Below, piece by piece: positions 2,033 through 20,196 of a stretch of 24,000 nucleotides of DNA. This DNA comes from Rickettsiales bacterium (GTDB taxonomy: Bacteria; Pseudomonadota; Alphaproteobacteria; Rickettsiales; UBA8987): NCBI GenBank assembly GCA_033762595.1, contig JANRLM010000010.1, positions 9,494-33,493 of the forward strand. The letters run 5' to 3'. The translations under genes and the position numbers were made by a program. How positions within the stretch are numbered: the stretch's first letter is position 1; each line of letters begins with the position of its first letter. The notes under the pieces were generated by a model that did no database searches, had not been told where the DNA came from, and saw nothing but the letters and a program-made list of their open reading frames with translations.

Positions 2033-2107
2033 GGCCCCGTCGTCTAGCGGTTAGGACATCGCCCTTTCACGGCGGTAGCACGGGTTCGAGTCCCGTCGGG
2101 GTCACCA
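2033..2107 (+). tRNA. tRNA-Glu (anticodon UUC), CCA encoded
   Basis: 75 nt: GGCCCCGTCGTCTAGCGGTTAGGACATCGCCCTTTCACGGCGGTAGCACGGGTTCGAGTCCCGTCGGGGTCACCA. The 7-bp acceptor stem GGCCCCG/CGGGGTC has one G-U pair. The anticodon loop is CTTTCAC, and the T-arm is CACGGGTTCGAGTCCCGT. It aligns position by position with the E. coli tRNA-Glu architecture. Confidence 0.92.
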
Positions 2108-2198
2108 TCTTAAGTTATTGATTTACATATTATTTCTTAAATTTCTTATTTGCAAAATCTCTTCTAAAAATTTGATTTGGGTAATATTTGGGTAATAA
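2090..2198 (+). repeat. Direct repeat copy A: tRNA-Glu 3' end plus ~90 nt downstream (candidate attL-side)
   Basis: GTCCCGTCGGG (2090-2100) and TGATTTACATATTATTTCTTAAATTTCTTATTTGCAAAATCTCTTCTAAAAATTTGATTTGGGTAATATTTGGGTAATAA (2119-2198) recur at 6220-6314, at roughly four-fifths identity by eye. Confidence 0.65.
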
Positions 2199-2371
2199 GC
2201 CGATTGAAAAATTCGCTACTATAACCATATAAAAAACACCCCCTAGGGGAGATTTTGAAATTTTGATTAGGCTTTATAGTGGTGCTTATACAAGATAAAC
2301 ACTAATATTGTTTTGGTACAATTTATTAATGGGGGGGGTAGCCCCTTGCAAGGGTGGGGTATAATATAGAT

Positions 2372-2734
2372 GGGTAGAGGCGGTTACACACTTTAGAGTT
2401 AAGGAATGTTTATTTTGATTGTTAAAAAGCAAATGGGGCAATAAGATAAATCTTAATGAATCTTAAAACTTGTTTGACTAACCTGAAATAATCTATTAGC
2501 CTTTCTTTTGTGCAGGGAAATCTGCATTGGGTGTCGAAACCTATTCAAGAAGCGGTTTACAACATATACCGTATAAAAATATGCCCTTCCTAGTCTTCAT
2601 GGCTGGGAGGTGGTTATACATGTCCAAGCTGTAAGGCTAAAAATAGCCACAGTCGCACTTCTTGTCGGCTTTCGAACTCCCAGCTACCATGAAAATATCT
2701 AACTAACCTTAAGATAAACGCTTGGTAGCTTTTT
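2372..2734 (+). ncRNA. Candidate structured RNA or long structured leader (unclassified)
   Basis: An ORF-free stretch that is visibly GC-richer than its surroundings. A perfect TATAAT lies at 2360-2365. Local hairpins: TGCAG-GGAAAT-CTGCA at 2511-2526 and CTGT..GGCT-AAAAAT-AGCC..ACAG at 2629-2652. A 9-bp long-range helix pairs GGCTGGGAG (2601-2609) with CTCCCAGCT (2677-2685). A terminal hairpin GCTACCA (2683-2689)/TGGTAGC (2723-2729) is followed by TTTTT. I recognise no known RNA family. Confidence 0.2.
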
Positions 2735-2761
2735 ATTATAATTAATAAAAGGGAGCTTTCT

Positions 2762-2953
2762 ATGAAGTCTAAAATTCTAACAATAATAATTGCAACTGGC
2801 GTTTTTCTTTCTGTAAGCAGTGCATTTGCTCAAGGCTATCAAAGGGTGAATGGCTATTACAAAAACAACGGAACTTATGTTCAGCCTCACTTTAGAACTC
2901 GTGCAGATGGCAACCCATATAATAATTATGGCAGTAGCTTAAACGGCAATTAA
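2762..2953 (+). CDS. Small secreted protein (signal peptide plus Gly/Tyr/Asn-rich mature part), function unknown
   Basis: 63 aa. MKSKILTIIIATGVFLSVSSAFA-QG is a classical Sec signal with an AxA site. SD GGGAG sits 6 nt upstream of the ATG, a TATAAT lies at 2737-2742, and a strong terminator follows. Confidence 0.6.
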   Translation: MKSKILTIIIATGVFLSVSSAFAQGYQRVNGYYKNNGTYVQPHFRTRADGNPYNNYGSSLNGN

Positions 2954-2960
2954 TTTATTG

Positions 2961-2992
2961 GGCTAGTGATGAAAAGTTACTAGCCTTTTTTT
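2961..2992 (+). terminator. Rho-independent terminator after the small secreted-protein gene
   Basis: Stem GGCTAGT(GA)/(TT)ACTAGCC spans 2961-2985 and is followed by a run of 7 T (2986-2992). Confidence 0.65.
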
Positions 2993-3045
2993 ATGTTAGT
3001 TTTTTCTGCACTTCTCTTACTTTTCTTGGTCTTGATTGCTTATCT

Positions 3046-3101
3046 TATCTACTCCAGCATAAAAGGAATAGAAGATGATTTAGATGGGTATTGAAGATAA
3101 A
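3046..3101 (+). repeat. 56-bp direct repeat, copy a (inner boundary repeat of the quorum-sensing cassette)
   Basis: TATCTACTCCAGCATAAAAGGAATAGAAGATGATTTAGATGGGTATTGAAGATAAA. This is identical to 6044-6099 except for 3 substitutions and has no indel. Confidence 0.8.
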
Positions 3102-3191
3102 AAATTTAATGTTTTTGCATGTAAAATAAATTGCAAAACCCTATAAATATTGGTTGCTGCCATTCTATTAAAACTAATTAGTTTGCTGTTT

Positions 3192-3374
3192 TCAAAAATA
3201 AGAAAGCAGACCTTCCATAATTACATCTTCATCTTGTGCATCAAATTTATCTATAAAATTTTGATGATATTTTTCAGGATAGATAATATTATCTTTTGTA
3301 TGAAATAATTCAATTCTAGGTTTAAAATCCATTTTTAATTGACAATTAATGTTTTTATAGCTTAGGTAGAACAA
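3192..3374 (-). CDS. Hypothetical small protein divergent from the XRE gene (46-60 aa depending on start)
   Basis: The track ORF starts at a TTG (3374). An internal ATG at 3332-3330 would give 46 aa (MDFKPRIELFHTKDN...). Neither start has a clear SD and no motif is recognisable. Weak call. Confidence 0.25.
   Translation of the reverse strand: MFYLSYKNINCQLKMDFKPRIELFHTKDNIIYPEKYHQNFIDKFDAQDEDVIMEGLLSYF
3335..3349. promoter_or_regulatory. 15-bp perfect palindrome TTAATTG-A-CAATTAA overlapping a consensus -35 (TTGACA, 3339-3344); candidate operator/promoter of the xre-luxR operon
   Basis: Read directly from the sequence. It lies ~45 nt upstream of the XRE start codon, in the divergent intergenic region. 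The downstream -10 is only weak. Confidence 0.3.
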
Positions 3375-3392
3375 AATCCAAGTTGTTCAACC

Positions 3393-3743
3393 ATGAATAG
3401 CAAAATTTTAGAAATCAGAGAAAGTATTTCTAATAACTTAAAAGAGCTCAGATTATCAAAAGGGCTGAGTCAAAAAGATGCTGGAAATGTTCTTTCTATT
3501 TCTCCTCAACAATATCAAAAATATGAAAAAGGGCAAGATAGAATGTCTGCTGATTCATTAATTCATCTTCTAAATGAGTTAGATGTAGATGTTTCAGTTT
3601 TCATGAATGAAGTTTACAAAAATTGTAATAATAATGATAAAAAAGAATCCTCAGATTTGGAGTTAATTGGTCTATTCAGCAATATTTCAAAAGAAAATAA
3701 GGAATTTTTATTAACAATGATGAAAATTATGTCTGGTAAATAA
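3393..3743 (+). CDS. XRE-family helix-turn-helix transcriptional regulator
   Basis: 116 aa. LKELRLSKGLSQKDAGNVLSISPQQYQKYEKGQDRMSADSLIHLL is a canonical HTH_3/Cro-C1 motif. Its stop is 17 nt before the luxR-type gene, so the two are probably co-transcribed. Confidence 0.75.
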   Translation: MNSKILEIRESISNNLKELRLSKGLSQKDAGNVLSISPQQYQKYEKGQDRMSADSLIHLLNELDVDVSVFMNEVYKNCNNNDKKESSDLELIGLFSNISKENKEFLLTMMKIMSGK

Positions 3744-3760
3744 CCAAAATATTTTAGGCA

Positions 3761-4501
3761 ATGTCGATATTAGAGGAGTTCATATTAAAATCTAATAGAA
3801 TCAATAATATTGATGAGCTTTTTATTGAATATAGAAAAACCCTTGAATATTTCGGTTTTGATAAAGTTGTTTATAGTTTAATTACTGATCACTACAAAGC
3901 TGGTCTTCAGGCCGGTCATGCAATAATGGGTAATTACCCGCAAGATTTTTTAAAACATTATATGGAAAAGGGCTATCAAAAGCTTGATCCTGTTCCCAAG
4001 CAAGCATTTAAGAGCGTTAAGCCATTTGCTTGGAAATCCATCTCAGAAGAAAGAGAACTTAACAAAGATGAGTTGCTAGTTATGAATGAAGCAGATGATG
4101 CTAAACTTCTTAGCGGAGTTGGAATACCTCTTTATGGTGCAAATGGGGAAATAGCAGGGGTTGGAATTGCAAGCTCAGAAAGAGATTTAGATTTGAATAT
4201 TGATATTTTATCAATGTTAAGGGCTATTACGCATCAATTTCACTTAGTTTACTTGGATTTATGCAAACGCCCAAATAATGATAATAAAATTGCCTTAACT
4301 AATAGAGAAAGAGAAATATTGTTGTGGTATGCATCTGGCAAGAAAGATGGCGATATTGCAGATATTATTGGAATATCATATGATTCTGTAAGGTTTCACT
4401 CAAAGAATATATTTAAGAAATTAGATGTTAATGACAGGGTTTTTGCAGTCGTAAAAGCCATAAGACTTGGATTAATAACTCCGAATTATGTTTTCAACTA
4501 G
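3761..4501 (+). CDS. luxR: LuxR-family quorum-sensing regulator (N-terminal autoinducer-binding domain plus C-terminal GerE/LuxR HTH)
   Basis: 246 aa. The C-terminus LTNREREILLWYASGKKDGDIADIIGISYDSVRFHSKNIFKKLDVNDRVFAVVKAI is the LuxR-type HTH. The N-terminal ~170 aa has the length and the Y/W/D-containing pattern of autoinducer-binding domains. Confidence 0.85.
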   Translation: MSILEEFILKSNRINNIDELFIEYRKTLEYFGFDKVVYSLITDHYKAGLQAGHAIMGNYPQDFLKHYMEKGYQKLDPVPKQAFKSVKPFAWKSISEERELNKDELLVMNEADDAKLLSGVGIPLYGANGEIAGVGIASSERDLDLNIDILSMLRAITHQFHLVYLDLCKRPNNDNKIALTNREREILLWYASGKKDGDIADIIGISYDSVRFHSKNIFKKLDVNDRVFAVVKAIRLGLITPNYVFN

Positions 4502-4503
4502 AT

Positions 4504-4525
4504 ATCCTACCTACCTTGGTAGGAT
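4504..4525. promoter_or_regulatory. lux-box-like inverted repeat ATCCTACC-TACCTT-GGTAGGAT upstream of the luxI-type gene
   Basis: Perfect 8-bp arms with a 6-bp spacer. It contains CT-N12-AG, the minimal las/lux-box pattern. Its centre is ~60 nt upstream of the luxI ATG, which fits a position near -42 relative to a short-leader promoter. It starts 3 nt after the luxR stop, so a terminator-hairpin role cannot be excluded, although no T-run follows. Confidence 0.45.
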
Positions 4526-4573
4526 GAATTAACTTTTGCTTTAAGGCATTCTCCCAAAAAACAGGGAGAGTAT

Positions 4574-5227
4574 ATGACTATAGAATGCGTTACCTTAGAA
4601 ACCAATCATCTTTTTGATGGCAACCCAATAGCAGAACAGCATAAACTTAGATATAGAAGTATAATTCAAAGACAAGGCTGGGAAGTGCCAACAATAAGAA
4701 ATCTTGAATTTGATCAATATGACAACCCTGCAACCACTTACCTCATTTGGCGAGATTATAATGGAATTGCGAGAGGTGTTTCTCGTTTATATCCAACAGA
4801 TAGACCATATATGTTAAAGGAAGTTTTTCCAAAATTAGCTGAAAATGTTCCACTTCCATCATCAGTAGATATATGGGAAGGAACAAGATTCTGCGTAGAT
4901 AAAGGCTTAGATGCCCCTTTAAGAAAAAGAATTATTCAAGAAATTATCCTAGGTTATTTAGAATATGGCTTGCAAGCTGGAATTAAAAAATATGTTGGTA
5001 TTATGCTTCCAATCTATTGGAATAATATATTTGAAAAAAATGGCTGGAAAGTTAGCTATTGGAGTGATGTTATAACAATCGATAACGGCGATAGAATTCG
5101 CTCTGGCGAGGTTGAAGTTTCAGAGGAAAATCTCGCTTTAGTAAGAAAAAAAACCGGTATCAATGAGTCAATTATAAACTATGGTAAATATGAAGGTGAA
5201 TATGCAAACAACAGAAAAGCAATCTAA
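4574..5227 (+). CDS. luxI: LuxI-family acyl-homoserine-lactone synthase
   Basis: 217 aa. RYRSIIQRQGWEVP...EFDQYD, GVSRLYPTDRPYMLKEVF and WEGTRFCVDK match the conserved LuxI-family blocks (R..F..R..W, E.D.YD, RL.PT...ML, WE.SRF.V). SD GGGAGA lies upstream. Confidence 0.85.
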   Translation: MTIECVTLETNHLFDGNPIAEQHKLRYRSIIQRQGWEVPTIRNLEFDQYDNPATTYLIWRDYNGIARGVSRLYPTDRPYMLKEVFPKLAENVPLPSSVDIWEGTRFCVDKGLDAPLRKRIIQEIILGYLEYGLQAGIKKYVGIMLPIYWNNIFEKNGWKVSYWSDVITIDNGDRIRSGEVEVSEENLALVRKKTGINESIINYGKYEGEYANNRKAI

Positions 5228-5495
5228 AAAAGTTGATGTTTCTACATTTATTAGTGCATTATACTTTTTGGTATCTGAATCAAATAAAGCCGGCAGTAAA
5301 AGCATCACTAAAATTTTAGAAAAAGCTTATTTGGATATAATATCTACCGCCAAGGAAGATGAATCCCTCTCTTTCGGAGAAGATATGTTAACAATGATGA
5401 ATTTTATTGGTAAATATTGCCAAAAAAATGACTTTGAAAGAAACGAATTTCTAAATATTGCAGAAAAAATTAATGAATTAAAAGCTTTGAATTAA
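5202..5495 (+). CDS. Hypothetical ~97-aa helical protein overlapping the 3' end of luxI
   Basis: The track ORF runs 5181..5495. I prefer the ATG at 5202 because AGGTG sits just upstream. It overlaps the luxI stop by 26 nt, which suggests translational coupling. No motif is recognised. Confidence 0.45.
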   Translation: MQTTEKQSKKVDVSTFISALYFLVSESNKAGSKSITKILEKAYLDIISTAKEDESLSFGEDMLTMMNFIGKYCQKNDFERNEFLNIAEKINELKALN

Positions 5496-5545
5496 ATTTG
5501 GTAAAATCTTAAAGACAATTTAATTCGAATTTGCATCAATAATTT

Positions 5546-5842
5546 CTAAAGCCTTTTTCTGAGTTTGCAAATTTCATCAAAAATAAATTCAATTTCGTCA
5601 ATGAGATTATAAATTTCTTTATCAGATAAAAAATCAGTTTTGAAGATTTCTTTACTTTTTAGGTCAACTGACTTTTCAAGAAGAGCCTCAAGCCTTTTTT
5701 GAAGGGTTTCAGGCAGTTGGTTAATTCTAAAATGAAGCAAAGATTGCAAACTTGCGTTGAGCTTTTTTCTAAAATCAGGCTCTTCTTTTTCTAGATCTTC
5801 AATTGCGAGGGCAAAAGCGAAGTAAGATTCTTCAATATTCAT
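5546..5842 (-). CDS. Hypothetical 98-aa acidic helical protein
   Basis: The ORF has AAGG ~8 nt upstream of its ATG and converges on the luxI-linked ORF. No motif is recognised. Confidence 0.45.
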   Translation of the reverse strand: MNIEESYFAFALAIEDLEKEEPDFRKKLNASLQSLLHFRINQLPETLQKRLEALLEKSVDLKSKEIFKTDFLSDKEIYNLIDEIEFIFDEICKLRKRL

Positions 5843-5851
5843 AAACTTGCC

Positions 5852-6046
5852 TTAACTTGAAATATTTTTATGATTAGATTTATTGCCAAATTTTTCAAGA
5901 ATATAATCTATAACACCAACATTTCTAATTAAACCAATTAGTTGGTTATAGCTTCCTTTTACATAGAAATTTTTAGGGTCTGATACCCAATAATACTCTT
6001 TTAGGATAGATTTTAGGTCTATCAGAAGTAATTTTCGTGAACCTAT
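5852..6046 (-). pseudogene. 5'-truncated gene remnant ending 10 nt upstream of the 98-aa ORF
   Basis: A minus-strand frame is open for 64 codons (...LKEYYWVSDPKNFYVKGSYNQLIGLIRNVGVIDYILEKFGNKSNHKNISS*) with no ATG, GTG or TTG start. The frame closes (TAG) at the edge of repeat copy b (6044). That is consistent with truncation at an insertion junction. Confidence 0.25.
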
Positions 6047-6099
6047 CTACTCCAGCATCAAAGGAATAGAAGATGATTTAGGTGTGTATTGAAGATAAA
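6044..6099 (+). repeat. 56-bp direct repeat, copy b
   Basis: TATCTACTCCAGCATCAAAGGAATAGAAGATGATTTAGGTGTGTATTGAAGATAAA. Matches 3046-3101 at 53 of 56 positions. Confidence 0.8.
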
Positions 6100-6219
6100 T
6101 AGCAATCTAAATTAAACCTATAGACATTATAAAAAAACTTGGGGGTATTTTTGGGGGTATCAGTTAAAATGAGATGGCGGATTATCCCTATATATCAATT
6201 TCTTAATAAATTAAGGCGT

Positions 6220-6314
6220 GTCCCGTCGGGCACTGATTTATATCTTATTTATTAAATTTTTTGTTAGCAAAAGCTCTACTATAAAATTTGATTTTGGTAA
6301 TTTTTGGGTAATAA
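6220..6314 (+). repeat. Direct repeat copy B: degenerate tRNA-Glu 3' fragment plus downstream sequence (candidate attR-side)
   Basis: GTCCCGTCGGGCAC followed by TGATTTATATCTTATTTATTAAATTTTTTGTTAGCAAAAGCTCTACTATAAAATTTGATTTTGGTAATTTTTGGGTAATAA. It aligns with 2090-2198. It lacks the ACCA end and ~14 nt relative to copy A. Confidence 0.65.
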
Positions 6315-6422
6315 TATTTTTTTGAATTATAACTTCTTTAGCCATACTCAATCGCTTCAAATTTTCCGCTTGAGATATTAAAAAAACTCTGAAATAAAAG
6401 TTGAAAATTTTCTATTATTATA

Positions 6423-18228: not shown

Positions 18229-19125
18229 ATGGAATATATAAAATCAAATTTATCTGAACCTTTAGCAAAGAAAATTATAGGTAAAAAAGAAAATGCAGAG
18301 AAATATCTTTTAATGTTTAACGATATTAGGCCAATAAAAGATATAAAATTTAAAAATATTTCTAAGGGAAAAAACTCAGGCAATTTAATATTAGATGAGT
18401 CAAATGAAATTTGGAAATTAATTGTTGACAATTGGGATTATGAAGTCAGTAAAAAAATAATTAGAGAAATATTTAAAACTACTAACAAATATAAAAGTGG
18501 AAAGGTAGCGAATGATGCGATGGTTTTACTAATTGAGGAGTGGAATAATTTAAATCTTGGTAAAATTCAATGGCCTTTTTCACAGGGTGCATTTGATGAA
18601 TTTGTTCAGAGGGTTAATAGGGGAGAAGAGCTTGGTCAATATAAAGATGAAAAAGTAAAGTTAGCAGCCGTTCAGTATAGAAGAATAAAAGAAATTAACA
18701 CAGTAAGAAATGACTTTATAGAAACTTTAATTTTTGAGAAGAATGAAAATATACTTCCTACTCTTAACCATAGACGAGGAGTTGATTATTTCATAAATGG
18801 TTTTTCTTACGACCAAAAAGTAGCAAAAAGTCCAACAAATGAATTCAAAAAACACTACGGAGATAATTGGAGGGAAAAAGCCATCCAAGAACCCGCCCTA
18901 GTTGCAAAATATCTTTATCAATATCAAGATGAGGGAAGATTTGGGAGTGATCCAAGATTATTAGTTGTTTATTTAGACGAAGATGTTTCTATAGAAAAAA
19001 TTAGAGAAATAATTAATAAAACCGATTTAAGCAACCCTATTGAAATAAATTTTTCTTTTAAGCATAAGAATCAAGGCGAGGTGAGCTATAAAGTAAGTTG
19101 TTTTATAATTTTATTATATAACTGA
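18229..19125 (+). CDS. Unknown protein; candidate type II restriction endonuclease partner of the adjacent methyltransferase
   Basis: 298 aa with SD AAAGGG upstream. Its stop is 3 nt before the methyltransferase start. The only hint of a nuclease is a possible D...(D/E)xK arrangement (RGVDYFINGFSYDQKVAK). The assignment rests mainly on gene context. Confidence 0.4.
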   Translation: MEYIKSNLSEPLAKKIIGKKENAEKYLLMFNDIRPIKDIKFKNISKGKNSGNLILDESNEIWKLIVDNWDYEVSKKIIREIFKTTNKYKSGKVANDAMVLLIEEWNNLNLGKIQWPFSQGAFDEFVQRVNRGEELGQYKDEKVKLAAVQYRRIKEINTVRNDFIETLIFEKNENILPTLNHRRGVDYFINGFSYDQKVAKSPTNEFKKHYGDNWREKAIQEPALVAKYLYQYQDEGRFGSDPRLLVVYLDEDVSIEKIREIINKTDLSNPIEINFSFKHKNQGEVSYKVSCFIILLYN

Positions 19126-19128
19126 TAT

Positions 19129-20196
19129 ATGAACTATATAGGTAGCAAATTATCACTTTTGGGCTTCTTAGAAGAATCAATAAATAAAGTGGTTGATGAT
19201 AATTGTGCTGTATTTTGTGATTTATTTGCAGGAACAGGAATAGTGGGTAGCTATTTTAAAAAAAGAGGTTATAAAATAATTGCAAATGATATTCAATATT
19301 ACAGCTATGTCTTAAATAAGCATTACATTTCTAACGTAGGTGAATTAGAATTTATTAAATTATCTGGGGAAATTAATCAACTAAAAGACATAAAGATACC
19401 TTATAGAAAATATTTTGTATGTAGTTATTTGTCAAAACTAAACGGAGTAAAGGGGTTTATCTATGATAATTATTGTTTGGGCGGAACTATAAATAGTAAC
19501 TCTCCTAGGCAATATTTTTCTGATTTAAATGGGATGAGATGCGATGCAATCCGTCAAAAAATTGAATTTTGGAAAGAAAAAGGGTTATTATTAGAAAATG
19601 AATATTTTTTTTTAATAGCTAGCCTTATAGAGTCTGTTGATAAACACGCAAACACGGCTTCTGTTTATGGAGCTTTTCTTAAAAATCTAAAAAAATCAGC
19701 ACAAAAAGATTTTATTTTGAAGCCAGCAGAAATAATTATAAATGATAAACAGCACAATGTTTTTAATGATGATATTAATAGAATATTAGAAAGAGTAAGT
19801 GGCGATATTTTTTATTTAGATCCCCCATACAATCATCGCCAATATGCTACAAATTACCATATTTTAGAAACTATATCCAAGTATGACGCACCTAAAATTA
19901 AAGGAAAAACTGGACTGAGAGAATACCATAATCAAAAATCTAACTATTGCTCTAGATCTAAAGTAATAGACACCTTCAAAGAAACAATAATTAAATCTAA
20001 GGCGAAATATATATTTCTTAGTTACAATAACGAAGGGTTAATGAATTTTAATGATATAAAAGAGATTATGAGCTTACGAGGTAAGTATGGGTATTTTGTT
20101 AAAGAATACAATCGCTTTAAATCTGATAAATCTGAAAATAGAAATTATATTTCATCTAAAACACAAGAGTATTTGCACTATGTTGTTTGTAATTAG
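19129..20196 (+). CDS. Dam-family (D12 class, alpha-type) N6-adenine DNA methyltransferase
   Basis: 355 aa. N-terminal YIGSK, the SAM motif DLFAGTGIVG followed by ANDI, and the catalytic FYLDPPY. The motif order FxGxG ... DPPY is that of alpha-class enzymes. Confidence 0.8.
   Translation: MNYIGSKLSLLGFLEESINKVVDDNCAVFCDLFAGTGIVGSYFKKRGYKIIANDIQYYSYVLNKHYISNVGELEFIKLSGEINQLKDIKIPYRKYFVCSYLSKLNGVKGFIYDNYCLGGTINSNSPRQYFSDLNGMRCDAIRQKIEFWKEKGLLLENEYFFLIASLIESVDKHANTASVYGAFLKNLKKSAQKDFILKPAEIIINDKQHNVFNDDINRILERVSGDIFYLDPPYNHRQYATNYHILETISKYDAPKIKGKTGLREYHNQKSNYCSRSKVIDTFKETIIKSKAKYIFLSYNNEGLMNFNDIKEIMSLRGKYGYFVKEYNRFKSDKSENRNYISSKTQEYLHYVVCN

Follow-up and report, generated by a model that had tools for sequence, protein, structure and literature searches.

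LuxR/LuxI circuits for acyl-homoserine lactone (AHL) signalling are usually seen as two-gene units, and the closest described systems with additional genes come from phages and from Rhizobium and Methylobacterium. In the phage ARM81ld, a small open reading frame (ORF) faces an xre-luxR pair and is jointly activated by the XRE regulator and the AHL-bound LuxR; the small ORFs of such ARM81ld-type modules have been described as mutually dissimilar (Silpe et al.; PMC9894119, PMC10432266). In Roseobacter prophages, an hth gene diverges from xre-luxR-luxI to form lysis-lysogeny switches, where LuxR activates the promoter upstream of xre and the counter-oriented gene encodes a helix-turn-helix (HTH) protein; these switches undergo cassette exchange, persist in degraded prophages and have been reported only in the Roseobacter clade (Bunsick et al., bioRxiv 2026; PMC13345283). 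The cinR-cinI-cinS genes of Rhizobium leguminosarum and mmaR-mmaI-mmaP of Methylobacterium represent another arrangement, in which CinS and MmaP are co-transcribed with the luxI gene and bind PraR, a regulator of the XRE/HipB type (PMC4149787, PMC10790750). Here we analyzed a 24,000-nucleotide (nt) stretch of contig JANRLM010000010.1 from a Rickettsiales bacterium (GCA_033762595.1, positions 9,494 to 33,493 of the forward strand; hereafter the window), which carries a luxR-luxI module of a clade that inherits, in addition to the two canonical genes, an XRE regulator, a luxI-coupled protein of ~100 amino acids (aa), designated F97, and, in Alphaproteobacteria, a 46-aa peptide.

The layout of this module family can be described as a 46-aa small ORF on one strand, facing away from xre-luxR, a lux box and luxI-F97 on the other. 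In the window, xre, luxR and luxI were co-directional with gaps of 17 nt (xre-luxR) and 72 nt (luxR-luxI), and xre is apparently in one operon with luxR. All six ORFs of the unit, which is bounded by a pair of 56-nt direct repeats, were intact, and as read from its genes the luxR/luxI module is intact with conserved XRE and F97 partners. With moderate confidence, we regard positions 3046-6099 of the window as a horizontally acquired, self-contained AHL quorum-sensing cassette that belongs to a conserved, uncharacterised module family. Relatives of the module were found in metagenome-assembled genomes (MAGs) of Rhodospirillales, unclassified Alphaproteobacteria and Acidobacteriota; related loci are labelled L followed by a number, where L033 is a Rhodospirillales MAG, L011 a Terriglobia MAG and L080 is GCA_964445765.1. 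A first-pass annotation, made by a model from the letters of this DNA, had named XRE, LuxR and LuxI, and these identities were confirmed by profile matches far above the Pfam thresholds (Table 1). The geometry it had described, consisting of the 17-nt gap, an ORF overlapping the 3' end of luxI and a convergent 98-aa ORF, was found as claimed. Its start at 3192 coincides with the end of the counter-oriented small ORF, which it had left undiscussed.

Regarding the synthase, LuxI is preceded by a strong Shine-Dalgarno sequence (GGAGAG), and its comparison with LasI (1RO5) and TofI (3P2F) showed that the R, W, ExDxxD, R and ExTR motifs are kept (KLR, GW, EFDQYD, SRL and WEGTRF), with Ile at the position of LasI F27. 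Given these intact catalytic motifs, LuxI is predicted to make an AHL. We retrieved 284 homologues of this protein, the best of which showed 60–64% identity. The receptor LuxR could be aligned end to end with LasR, RhlR and TraR of the PDB, and five of the six ligand residues of LasR were kept in its pocket (Y56, Y64, D73, P74 and W88), the sixth, W60, being replaced by Phe. NCBIfam gave TraR/TraI-like matches for LuxR/LuxI below the equivalog level.

The 22-bp palindrome that follows the luxR stop codon (Table 1) is of the CT-N12-AG type, which is the lux-box pattern. A palindrome A[CT]CCTAC[CG]-N6-[CG]GTAGG[GA]T was also present directly 3' of the luxR stop in L002, L003, L005, L006, L008, L040, L044 and L045, showing that the lux box is common to alphaproteobacterial and acidobacterial loci and occupies the same position in at least eight related loci. 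Phylogenetic footprinting thus supports a putative LuxR target site at 4503-4524, where LuxR would be expected to act as an activator. The box lies between luxR and luxI and would place luxI-F97 under the control of LuxR.

Single-sequence searches with F97 (orf97) returned only self matches, both in 5.8 billion clusters by word index and in 1.84 billion representatives by phmmer. Membership of a family was recovered not by these searches but by positional comparison and profiles. In the contexts of the closest LuxI homologues (58–60% identity), a ~103-aa ORF with no Pfam match was found downstream of luxI, located immediately after it in L033 and separated from it by one more, overlapping, ORF in L031 and L032, and BLASTP aligned the window F97 to those ORFs with 26% identity over 101 residues. 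A hidden Markov model iterated on six-frame ORFs of 80 sequence sources converged on 36 ORFs, all of them on the same strand as luxI and a short way 3' of it, nearly all directly after or overlapping it. When the window sequence was left out of the profile, the window F97 still scored 33.2 bits (E = 4e-8), compared to 17.6 bits for the best of 2000 shuffles. The family was present in 32 of the 35 loci with enough downstream sequence; the overlap of the F97 start with the luxI stop measures 23–53 nt in most loci, and the members have in common four predicted helices and, at the N-terminus, the motif a-L-x-[YF]-L-x-x-E-[SA]-x-x-x-G. No match to F97 was found in Pfam or PDB, nor by a fold search, which carries little weight because the AlphaFold2 (AF2) single-sequence model behind it was weak (pLDDT of 61.6).

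Two variations of this part of the module were seen among the relatives. L031 (3195-3584) and L032 (6596-7021) contain an extra ORF of 129 and 141 aa, respectively, between luxI and the F97 gene, which overlaps both genes; the two extra proteins are 42% identical to each other, and by eye they share 'A-x-K…E-[IL]-x-x-[LM]…I-x-D-x-x-x-W' with F97, although the F97 profile missed them. In L011 (10399-14475), the luxI of the module is interrupted by an insertion of ~4 kb, and F97 and XRE are kept beyond the insertion.

The XRE regulator is composed of an HTH domain (residues 16–69) and a C-terminal helical extension of ~45 aa conserved in the family, and alignment of the module-linked XREs revealed an invariant QQxQKYE...R core along with a conserved C-terminal helical segment. 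We take the TFQQIQKYE...NRI core and C-terminal helix of the module XREs to resemble those of PhrR/PraR-type proteins. To evaluate linkage, a profile built from the XREs of the window, L031 and L033 was applied up to a distance of 4.5 kb from luxI in the 20 loci whose flanks were long enough. An XRE homologue was detected in 17 of these 20 loci, and L032 had no xre within 4.5 kb of the module. The gene was not always found in the same place. In the window, L033 and L009 it is upstream and co-directional, L006-8 have it further upstream, in L031 it diverges from luxR, and in the Acidobacteriota loci it comes immediately after F97 in a convergent orientation. The fact that the linkage is kept across two phyla despite this shuffling of position argues for a functional, not accidental, association. 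F97 and XRE are good candidate modulators since they are genuine conserved partners of the luxR-luxI clade, and the small proteins of the module would have regulatory roles in the circuit.

These results also bear on another explanation, namely that the locus is an ordinary chromosomal luxR-luxI pair and that xre and the small ORFs next to it are either unrelated to it or spurious. XRE genes are indeed very common, the small ORFs have no annotated domains and the 98-aa ORF (orf98) is an orphan; on the other hand, XRE and F97 are linked across two phyla, the F97 profile is significant, and conservation extends to the overlap with luxI and to both ends of the 46-aa ORF, which makes this explanation highly improbable.

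The relatives of the counter-oriented small ORF are 46–58 aa in length and comprise a β-strand-like N-terminus, an acidic run and a C-terminus of [GS]-L-[LI]-[TS]-x-[YF], and conservation at both termini was observed in five distinct alphaproteobacterial modules. The ORF is divergent from xre in L033 (…DDDSDFVPGGLLTFY) and L006-8 (…SGLITIF). A strict motif, [GS][LV][LI][TS]x[YF] after the acidic run, was matched by 11 of 16,917 ORFs, none of them outside the loci of this LuxI clade, and 8 of the 11 adjoin the module (L031, L032, L033/34 and L006-8). The other three, from Acidobacteriota (…SVLTLF), were regarded as doubtful and set aside; they are found 2–6 kb away, where the DNA is GC-rich and ORFs overlap, inside another conserved mobile element. 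The small ORF showed no match in Pfam, NCBIfam or PHROG and no HTH match, and we consider it a candidate effector of the small-ORF (smORF) type. No XRE operator motif conserved across loci was found in the divergent region between this ORF and xre, and a half-site-like CTTAGGTAGAA at ~3361-3371 was not conserved in L033 or L006.

Table 1. Coordinates of the quorum-sensing module and of the islet boundaries in the window
Feature	Position	Strand	Basis or remark
tRNA-Glu(UUC), left islet boundary	2033-2107	+	ARAGORN; Rfam tRNA 62.6 bits
tRNA downstream flank, att-like left copy	2118-2199	+	~85% identity with 6234-6316; repeat family D2 = 2167-2198 and 6283-6314
56-nt direct repeat, left copy	3046-3101	+	95% identity, spacing 2998 nt
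Small ORF, 46-aa core MDFKPRIELF…DEDVIMEGLLSYF (ending also given as DAQDEDVIMEGLLSYF)	3195-3332 (listed ORF 3192-3374)	-	conserved with the module in alphaproteobacterial relatives
Divergent control region, 60 bp, between small ORF and xre; contains palindrome TTAATTGACAATTAA	3333-3392	.	sequence inspection
XRE-family HTH regulator, 116 aa	3393-3743	+	Pfam HTH_3 1.5e-10, 41 bits (cut-off 23)
LuxR-type AHL receptor, 246 aa	3761-4501	+	Pfam Autoind_bind (PF03472) 1.3e-25, 90 bits; GerE (PF00196) 3.4e-15, 56 bits
lux box, 22-bp palindrome ATCCTACC-TACCTT-GGTAGGAT	4503-4524	+	CT-N12-AG type; single occurrence in the window
LuxI-type acyl-HSL synthase, 217 aa	4574-5227	+	Pfam Autoind_synth (PF00765) 7e-24, 84.8 bits (cut-off 24)
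F97, 97 aa, four predicted helices	5202-5495	+	most likely start ATG 5202, inside the luxI 3' end (26-nt overlap) and preceded by Shine-Dalgarno GAAGGTGA
orf98, 98 aa, acidic, helical, convergent, inside the repeat-bounded unit	5546-5842	-	self match only
56-nt direct repeat, right copy	6044-6099	+	recreates the 3' end of the 33-aa ORF (…IYSSIKGIEDDLGVY*), reading frame kept
Degenerate tRNA-Glu 3' end (GTCCCGTCGGGCAC) and ~82-nt flank, att-like right boundary of the 4.25-kb islet	6218-6316	+	alignment

The module is located in an islet next to a tRNA-Glu gene (Table 1). The 56-nt direct repeat occurs only twice in the window (no matches in 100 shuffles), and its copies bracket the six quorum-sensing-associated ORFs exactly, giving a unit of ~3 kb. 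The left copy forms the 3' end of a 33-aa hydrophobic ORF (MLVFSALLLLFLVLIAYLIYSSIKGIEDDLDGY; 2993-3094, + strand) and the right copy recreates it, which suggests that the cassette was inserted at, or duplicated, the end of the 33-aa gene. An attC/integron reading of the repeat was discarded, as no GTTRRRY / RYYYAAC core was recognised by eye. The closest relative, L080 (~78% nucleotide identity), aligns to the window up to tRNA-Glu and resumes at 6360 with no counterpart of 2108-6359. That this relative lacks the module can also be concluded from the database search, where the best LuxI anywhere was 64% identical, although the relative, sharing proteins of at least 90% identity, is in the same database. 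At the same tRNA, L080 carries a different island (L080 1796-6480) encoding an integrase-associated DUF6538 fragment, BrnT/BrnA, ParE and ThiC. The region around tRNA-Glu is a hotspot of rearrangement and integration, and the proposal of the first-pass annotation that the module sits on a mobile islet gained support from the tRNA-Glu, the 56-nt repeats, the duplicated tRNA 3' end and flank, and the absence from the closest relative. In L080, moreover, the orientation of the EamA-Ham1 block relative to sspB is reversed, and mraZ-rsmH is found at another place.

The remaining part of the islet, upstream of the repeat-bounded unit, contains a 63-aa secreted-type peptide (2762-2953, + strand) with a signal-peptide-like N-terminus and a Y/N/G-rich tail, which matched phrog_29674, a family of unknown function, at E = 3e-10; next comes a terminator-like hairpin (2960-2986). 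A full-length match to the Rfam family sRNA-Xcc1 at 2601-2693 (+ strand) was below threshold (30.1 bits and E = 0.006, the gathering score being 53); it lies in a relatively GC-rich stretch (2200-2740) with a fold z-score of −2.4, and the family is presumably integron-cassette-associated. G/C-rich palindromes in AT-rich DNA were observed at 2230-2360 (AACACCCCCTAGGGGAG; GGGGGGGGTAGCCCCTTGCAAGGGTGGGG) and may be what the first-pass annotation called palindromic repeats. In total, the islet showed att-like repeats and one PHROG-matching peptide, and no phage structural or integrase genes were found in it.

One interpretation of the islet is that xre and the small ORF (or orf98) constitute a toxin-antitoxin or addiction pair, which stabilises the islet independently of quorum sensing. 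XRE antitoxins are common, the window XRE showed weak NCBIfam matches including MqsA, HipB and PezA-type HTH domains, and BrnT/BrnA and ParE are present in the island of the relative. Nevertheless, neither the small ORF nor orf98 matched any toxin family in Pfam, NCBIfam or PHROGs, the small ORF is apart from xre in L031 and L032, the latter with no xre within 4.5 kb, and xre apparently shares an operon with luxR in the window. This is the least probable of the interpretations that we considered.

The main rival to a cassette in use by its host is that it represents a stranded lysis-lysogeny or transfer switch of a prophage or integrative element within a decayed tRNA-Glu island, which has no host role and at most interferes with incoming elements. 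This is compatible with the islet data and does not exclude host use. Such an origin would fit the location at a tRNA that serves as an integration hotspot, the att-like repeats, the lack of an integrase, the replacement of the module by a toxin-antitoxin-carrying island at the same tRNA in L080, the phrog_29674 match of the neighbouring peptide and the sub-threshold sRNA-Xcc1 match. A serine-recombinase fragment was also seen upstream of the module in L032, and comparable modules are known to be kept in degraded prophages and exchanged as cassettes (PMC13345283). The state and the distribution of the module point in the other direction: the six ORFs are intact, with strong Shine-Dalgarno sequences for luxI and F97, and the same module is surrounded by housekeeping genes in L033. 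In addition, the LuxI clade has no relative in IMG/VR, and GenBank phages and plasmids gave matches of no more than 37% identity; a phage or plasmid origin was rejected on the grounds that no close LuxI was found in IMG/VR, GenBank phages or PLSDB. The lux box precedes luxI and not xre as it would in the phage PLysogeny design, and the counter-oriented gene does not encode an HTH protein. Taking both sides together, we judge the stranded switch to be unlikely.

Several observations weigh against our interpretation of the locus as a self-contained cassette with dedicated partners. Of 35 clade members, 34 retain the ligand-contacting Trp, and only the window LuxR has Phe there; this W60-to-F change may mean altered specificity or decay, and its uniqueness to the window would also agree with a stranded switch. 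Scanning of the window revealed no second lux box near xre or the 46-aa ORF. The small ORF itself is downstream and convergent, not divergent from xre, in L031 (…DFLSGLLTLY) and L032 (…DFLSGLITLY), it was not found in L009, no confident copy was identified in Acidobacteriota, and in the window it has no clear Shine-Dalgarno sequence. Furthermore, a SinI-like mimicry between F97 and XRE had to be rejected, as the two family profiles were unalike (hhalign probability of 0.3%); a 29-nt stretch of 79% identity between the XRE C-terminus (EFLLTMMKIM) and orf97 (EDMLTMMNFI) was judged to be due to chance.

Unlike F97 and XRE, orf98 had no homologue in 5.8 billion protein clusters or among the fetched related loci. 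Its AF2 model is a four-helix bundle (pLDDT of 76.6), for which the fold search returned only generic helical bundles. It is probably a real gene, which we regard as lineage-specific cargo; nothing could be shown to connect it with the circuit. The three extra proteins had been proposed as novel modulators in the first-pass annotation; this part stands for XRE and F97, which proved to be conserved partners, and fails for orf98, which is not conserved next to any luxI of the related loci.

The host genome was also characterized through the window, which has ~30% GC and encodes DUF2671, CysNC, PurB, BioC/BioD and PDH-E2; these genes other than DUF2671, together with ThiC and MotB of the relative GCA_964445765.1, indicate that the genome, for which the first-pass annotation had suggested endosymbiont-like features, is not strongly reduced. 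We take the Pfam family DUF2671 to be largely restricted to Rickettsiales. Our literature search yielded nothing describing LuxI/LuxR systems encoded by Rickettsiales, and to our knowledge AHL signalling has not been established in Rickettsiales-like AT-rich lineages. With this locus, an intact AHL system is recorded from an AT-rich genome with a DUF2671 gene, where it occupies a 3-kb cassette between repeats. Orphan LuxI homologues, ~36% identical to the window LuxI and with no adjacent luxR, were seen in L013 (9986-10624, between gpmI and virB11) and L027, both MAGs labelled 'Rickettsia typhi', and thus AHL-synthase-like genes do occur in Rickettsiales-labelled MAGs; similar loci were found in AT-rich freshwater metagenomes (L065-L076). 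Apart from the module, a low-GC (~28%) pair at 18229-20196 (+ strand), consisting of an unannotated 298-aa ORF and a D12-class N6-adenine DNA methyltransferase, separates purB from the biotin genes and may represent a restriction-modification islet.

The analysis shows what the genes encode, that they are conserved, that F97 is coupled to luxI and where the lux box lies; from this we propose a circuit whose interactions would be as follows. LuxI, judging from its catalytic motifs, would make an AHL, and AHL-bound LuxR would bind the palindrome at 4503-4524 and activate luxI together with the translationally coupled F97, resulting in autoinduction and in density-dependent expression of F97. By analogy with CinS/MmaP and PraR, F97 may be a small helical adaptor that modulates a regulator, for which the co-inherited XRE would be the likeliest target. 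As the layout suggests, XRE, alone or with LuxR as in ARM81ld, might then control the 60-bp divergent region and thereby its own operon and the 46-aa ORF, the latter being the output effector. A bolder version of this model, which we think quite unlikely, is that F97 and the 46-aa peptide each represent a new class of accessory protein in quorum sensing and, with a dedicated XRE, make a portable switch of five components out of a LuxR/LuxI pair. F97 would be an anti-XRE factor induced by density, and the peptide an effector that might couple cell density to replication or growth arrest, given the resemblance of its C-terminus to a sliding-clamp-binding motif (QL[SD]LF-like: LLTLY, LITIF, LLSYF). 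It would also follow from this version that the module has spread between phyla independently of phages until its capture by an AT-rich Rickettsiales-like bacterium. The analysis leaves concrete candidate pairs, F97 with XRE and the small ORF with XRE or LuxR, as well as a defined lux box.

We finally compared the module with the known systems. TraM, RsaM and RsaL, likewise small, have their genes in or next to luxR/luxI loci and tune the circuit, whereas F97, orf98 and the 46-aa ORF showed no sequence or fold similarity to them. Searches for TraM, RsaM and RsaL gave no Pfam or NCBIfam match at E of 1 or below and no TraM in the PDB profile search, and Foldseek returned only generic bundles (E above 0.6), in agreement with the earlier statement that none of the three is recognisable here. 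RsaL differs further from the window XRE, which has 116 aa, a distinct C-terminal domain and a place upstream of luxR; the rsaL gene lies between the R and I genes.

The first-pass annotation had also called the topology of the module unusual, a claim that is not supported in view of the published precedents (ARM81ld, PMC9894119; Roseobacter prophages, PMC13345283; CinS/MmaP, PMC4149787 and PMC10790750). Compared by layout, the window, L033 and L006-8 resemble ARM81ld in having a counter-oriented small ORF immediately 5' of xre-luxR, whereas the phage has no luxI, senses a signal of its host and has no reported F97-type gene, and the window has no clear phage context. The Roseobacter prophage switch, again by layout, shares the order and orientation of xre-luxR-luxI and the counter-oriented gene upstream, and differs in several respects: the upstream gene of the window encodes a 46-aa non-HTH peptide, its lux box lies between luxR and luxI, a phage context is not evident, and no luxI-coupled F97 has been described for the prophages. 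With CinS and MmaP, the likeness, at the level of layout and description, is a small protein lacking annotated domains and encoded right after the AHL synthase, whose target, known for CinS and MmaP and proposed for F97, is an XRE protein with a C-terminal extension. At ~100 aa, F97 is longer than CinS (67 aa) and MmaP (59 aa), and PraR is encoded elsewhere in its genomes, whereas the window XRE travels with the module.

Among the new elements are the two conserved unannotated accessory proteins, F97 and the 46-aa ORF. In the window, themes known separately come together: a small ORF faces xre-luxR-luxI, a small protein is coupled to the synthase, and the XRE travels along. The module so extends both the phage xre-luxR(-luxI) switches and the anti-regulator logic of CinS/MmaP-PraR beyond their original hosts. 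Both may reflect a single modular design, where the small protein coupled to the synthase and its XRE target travel together.

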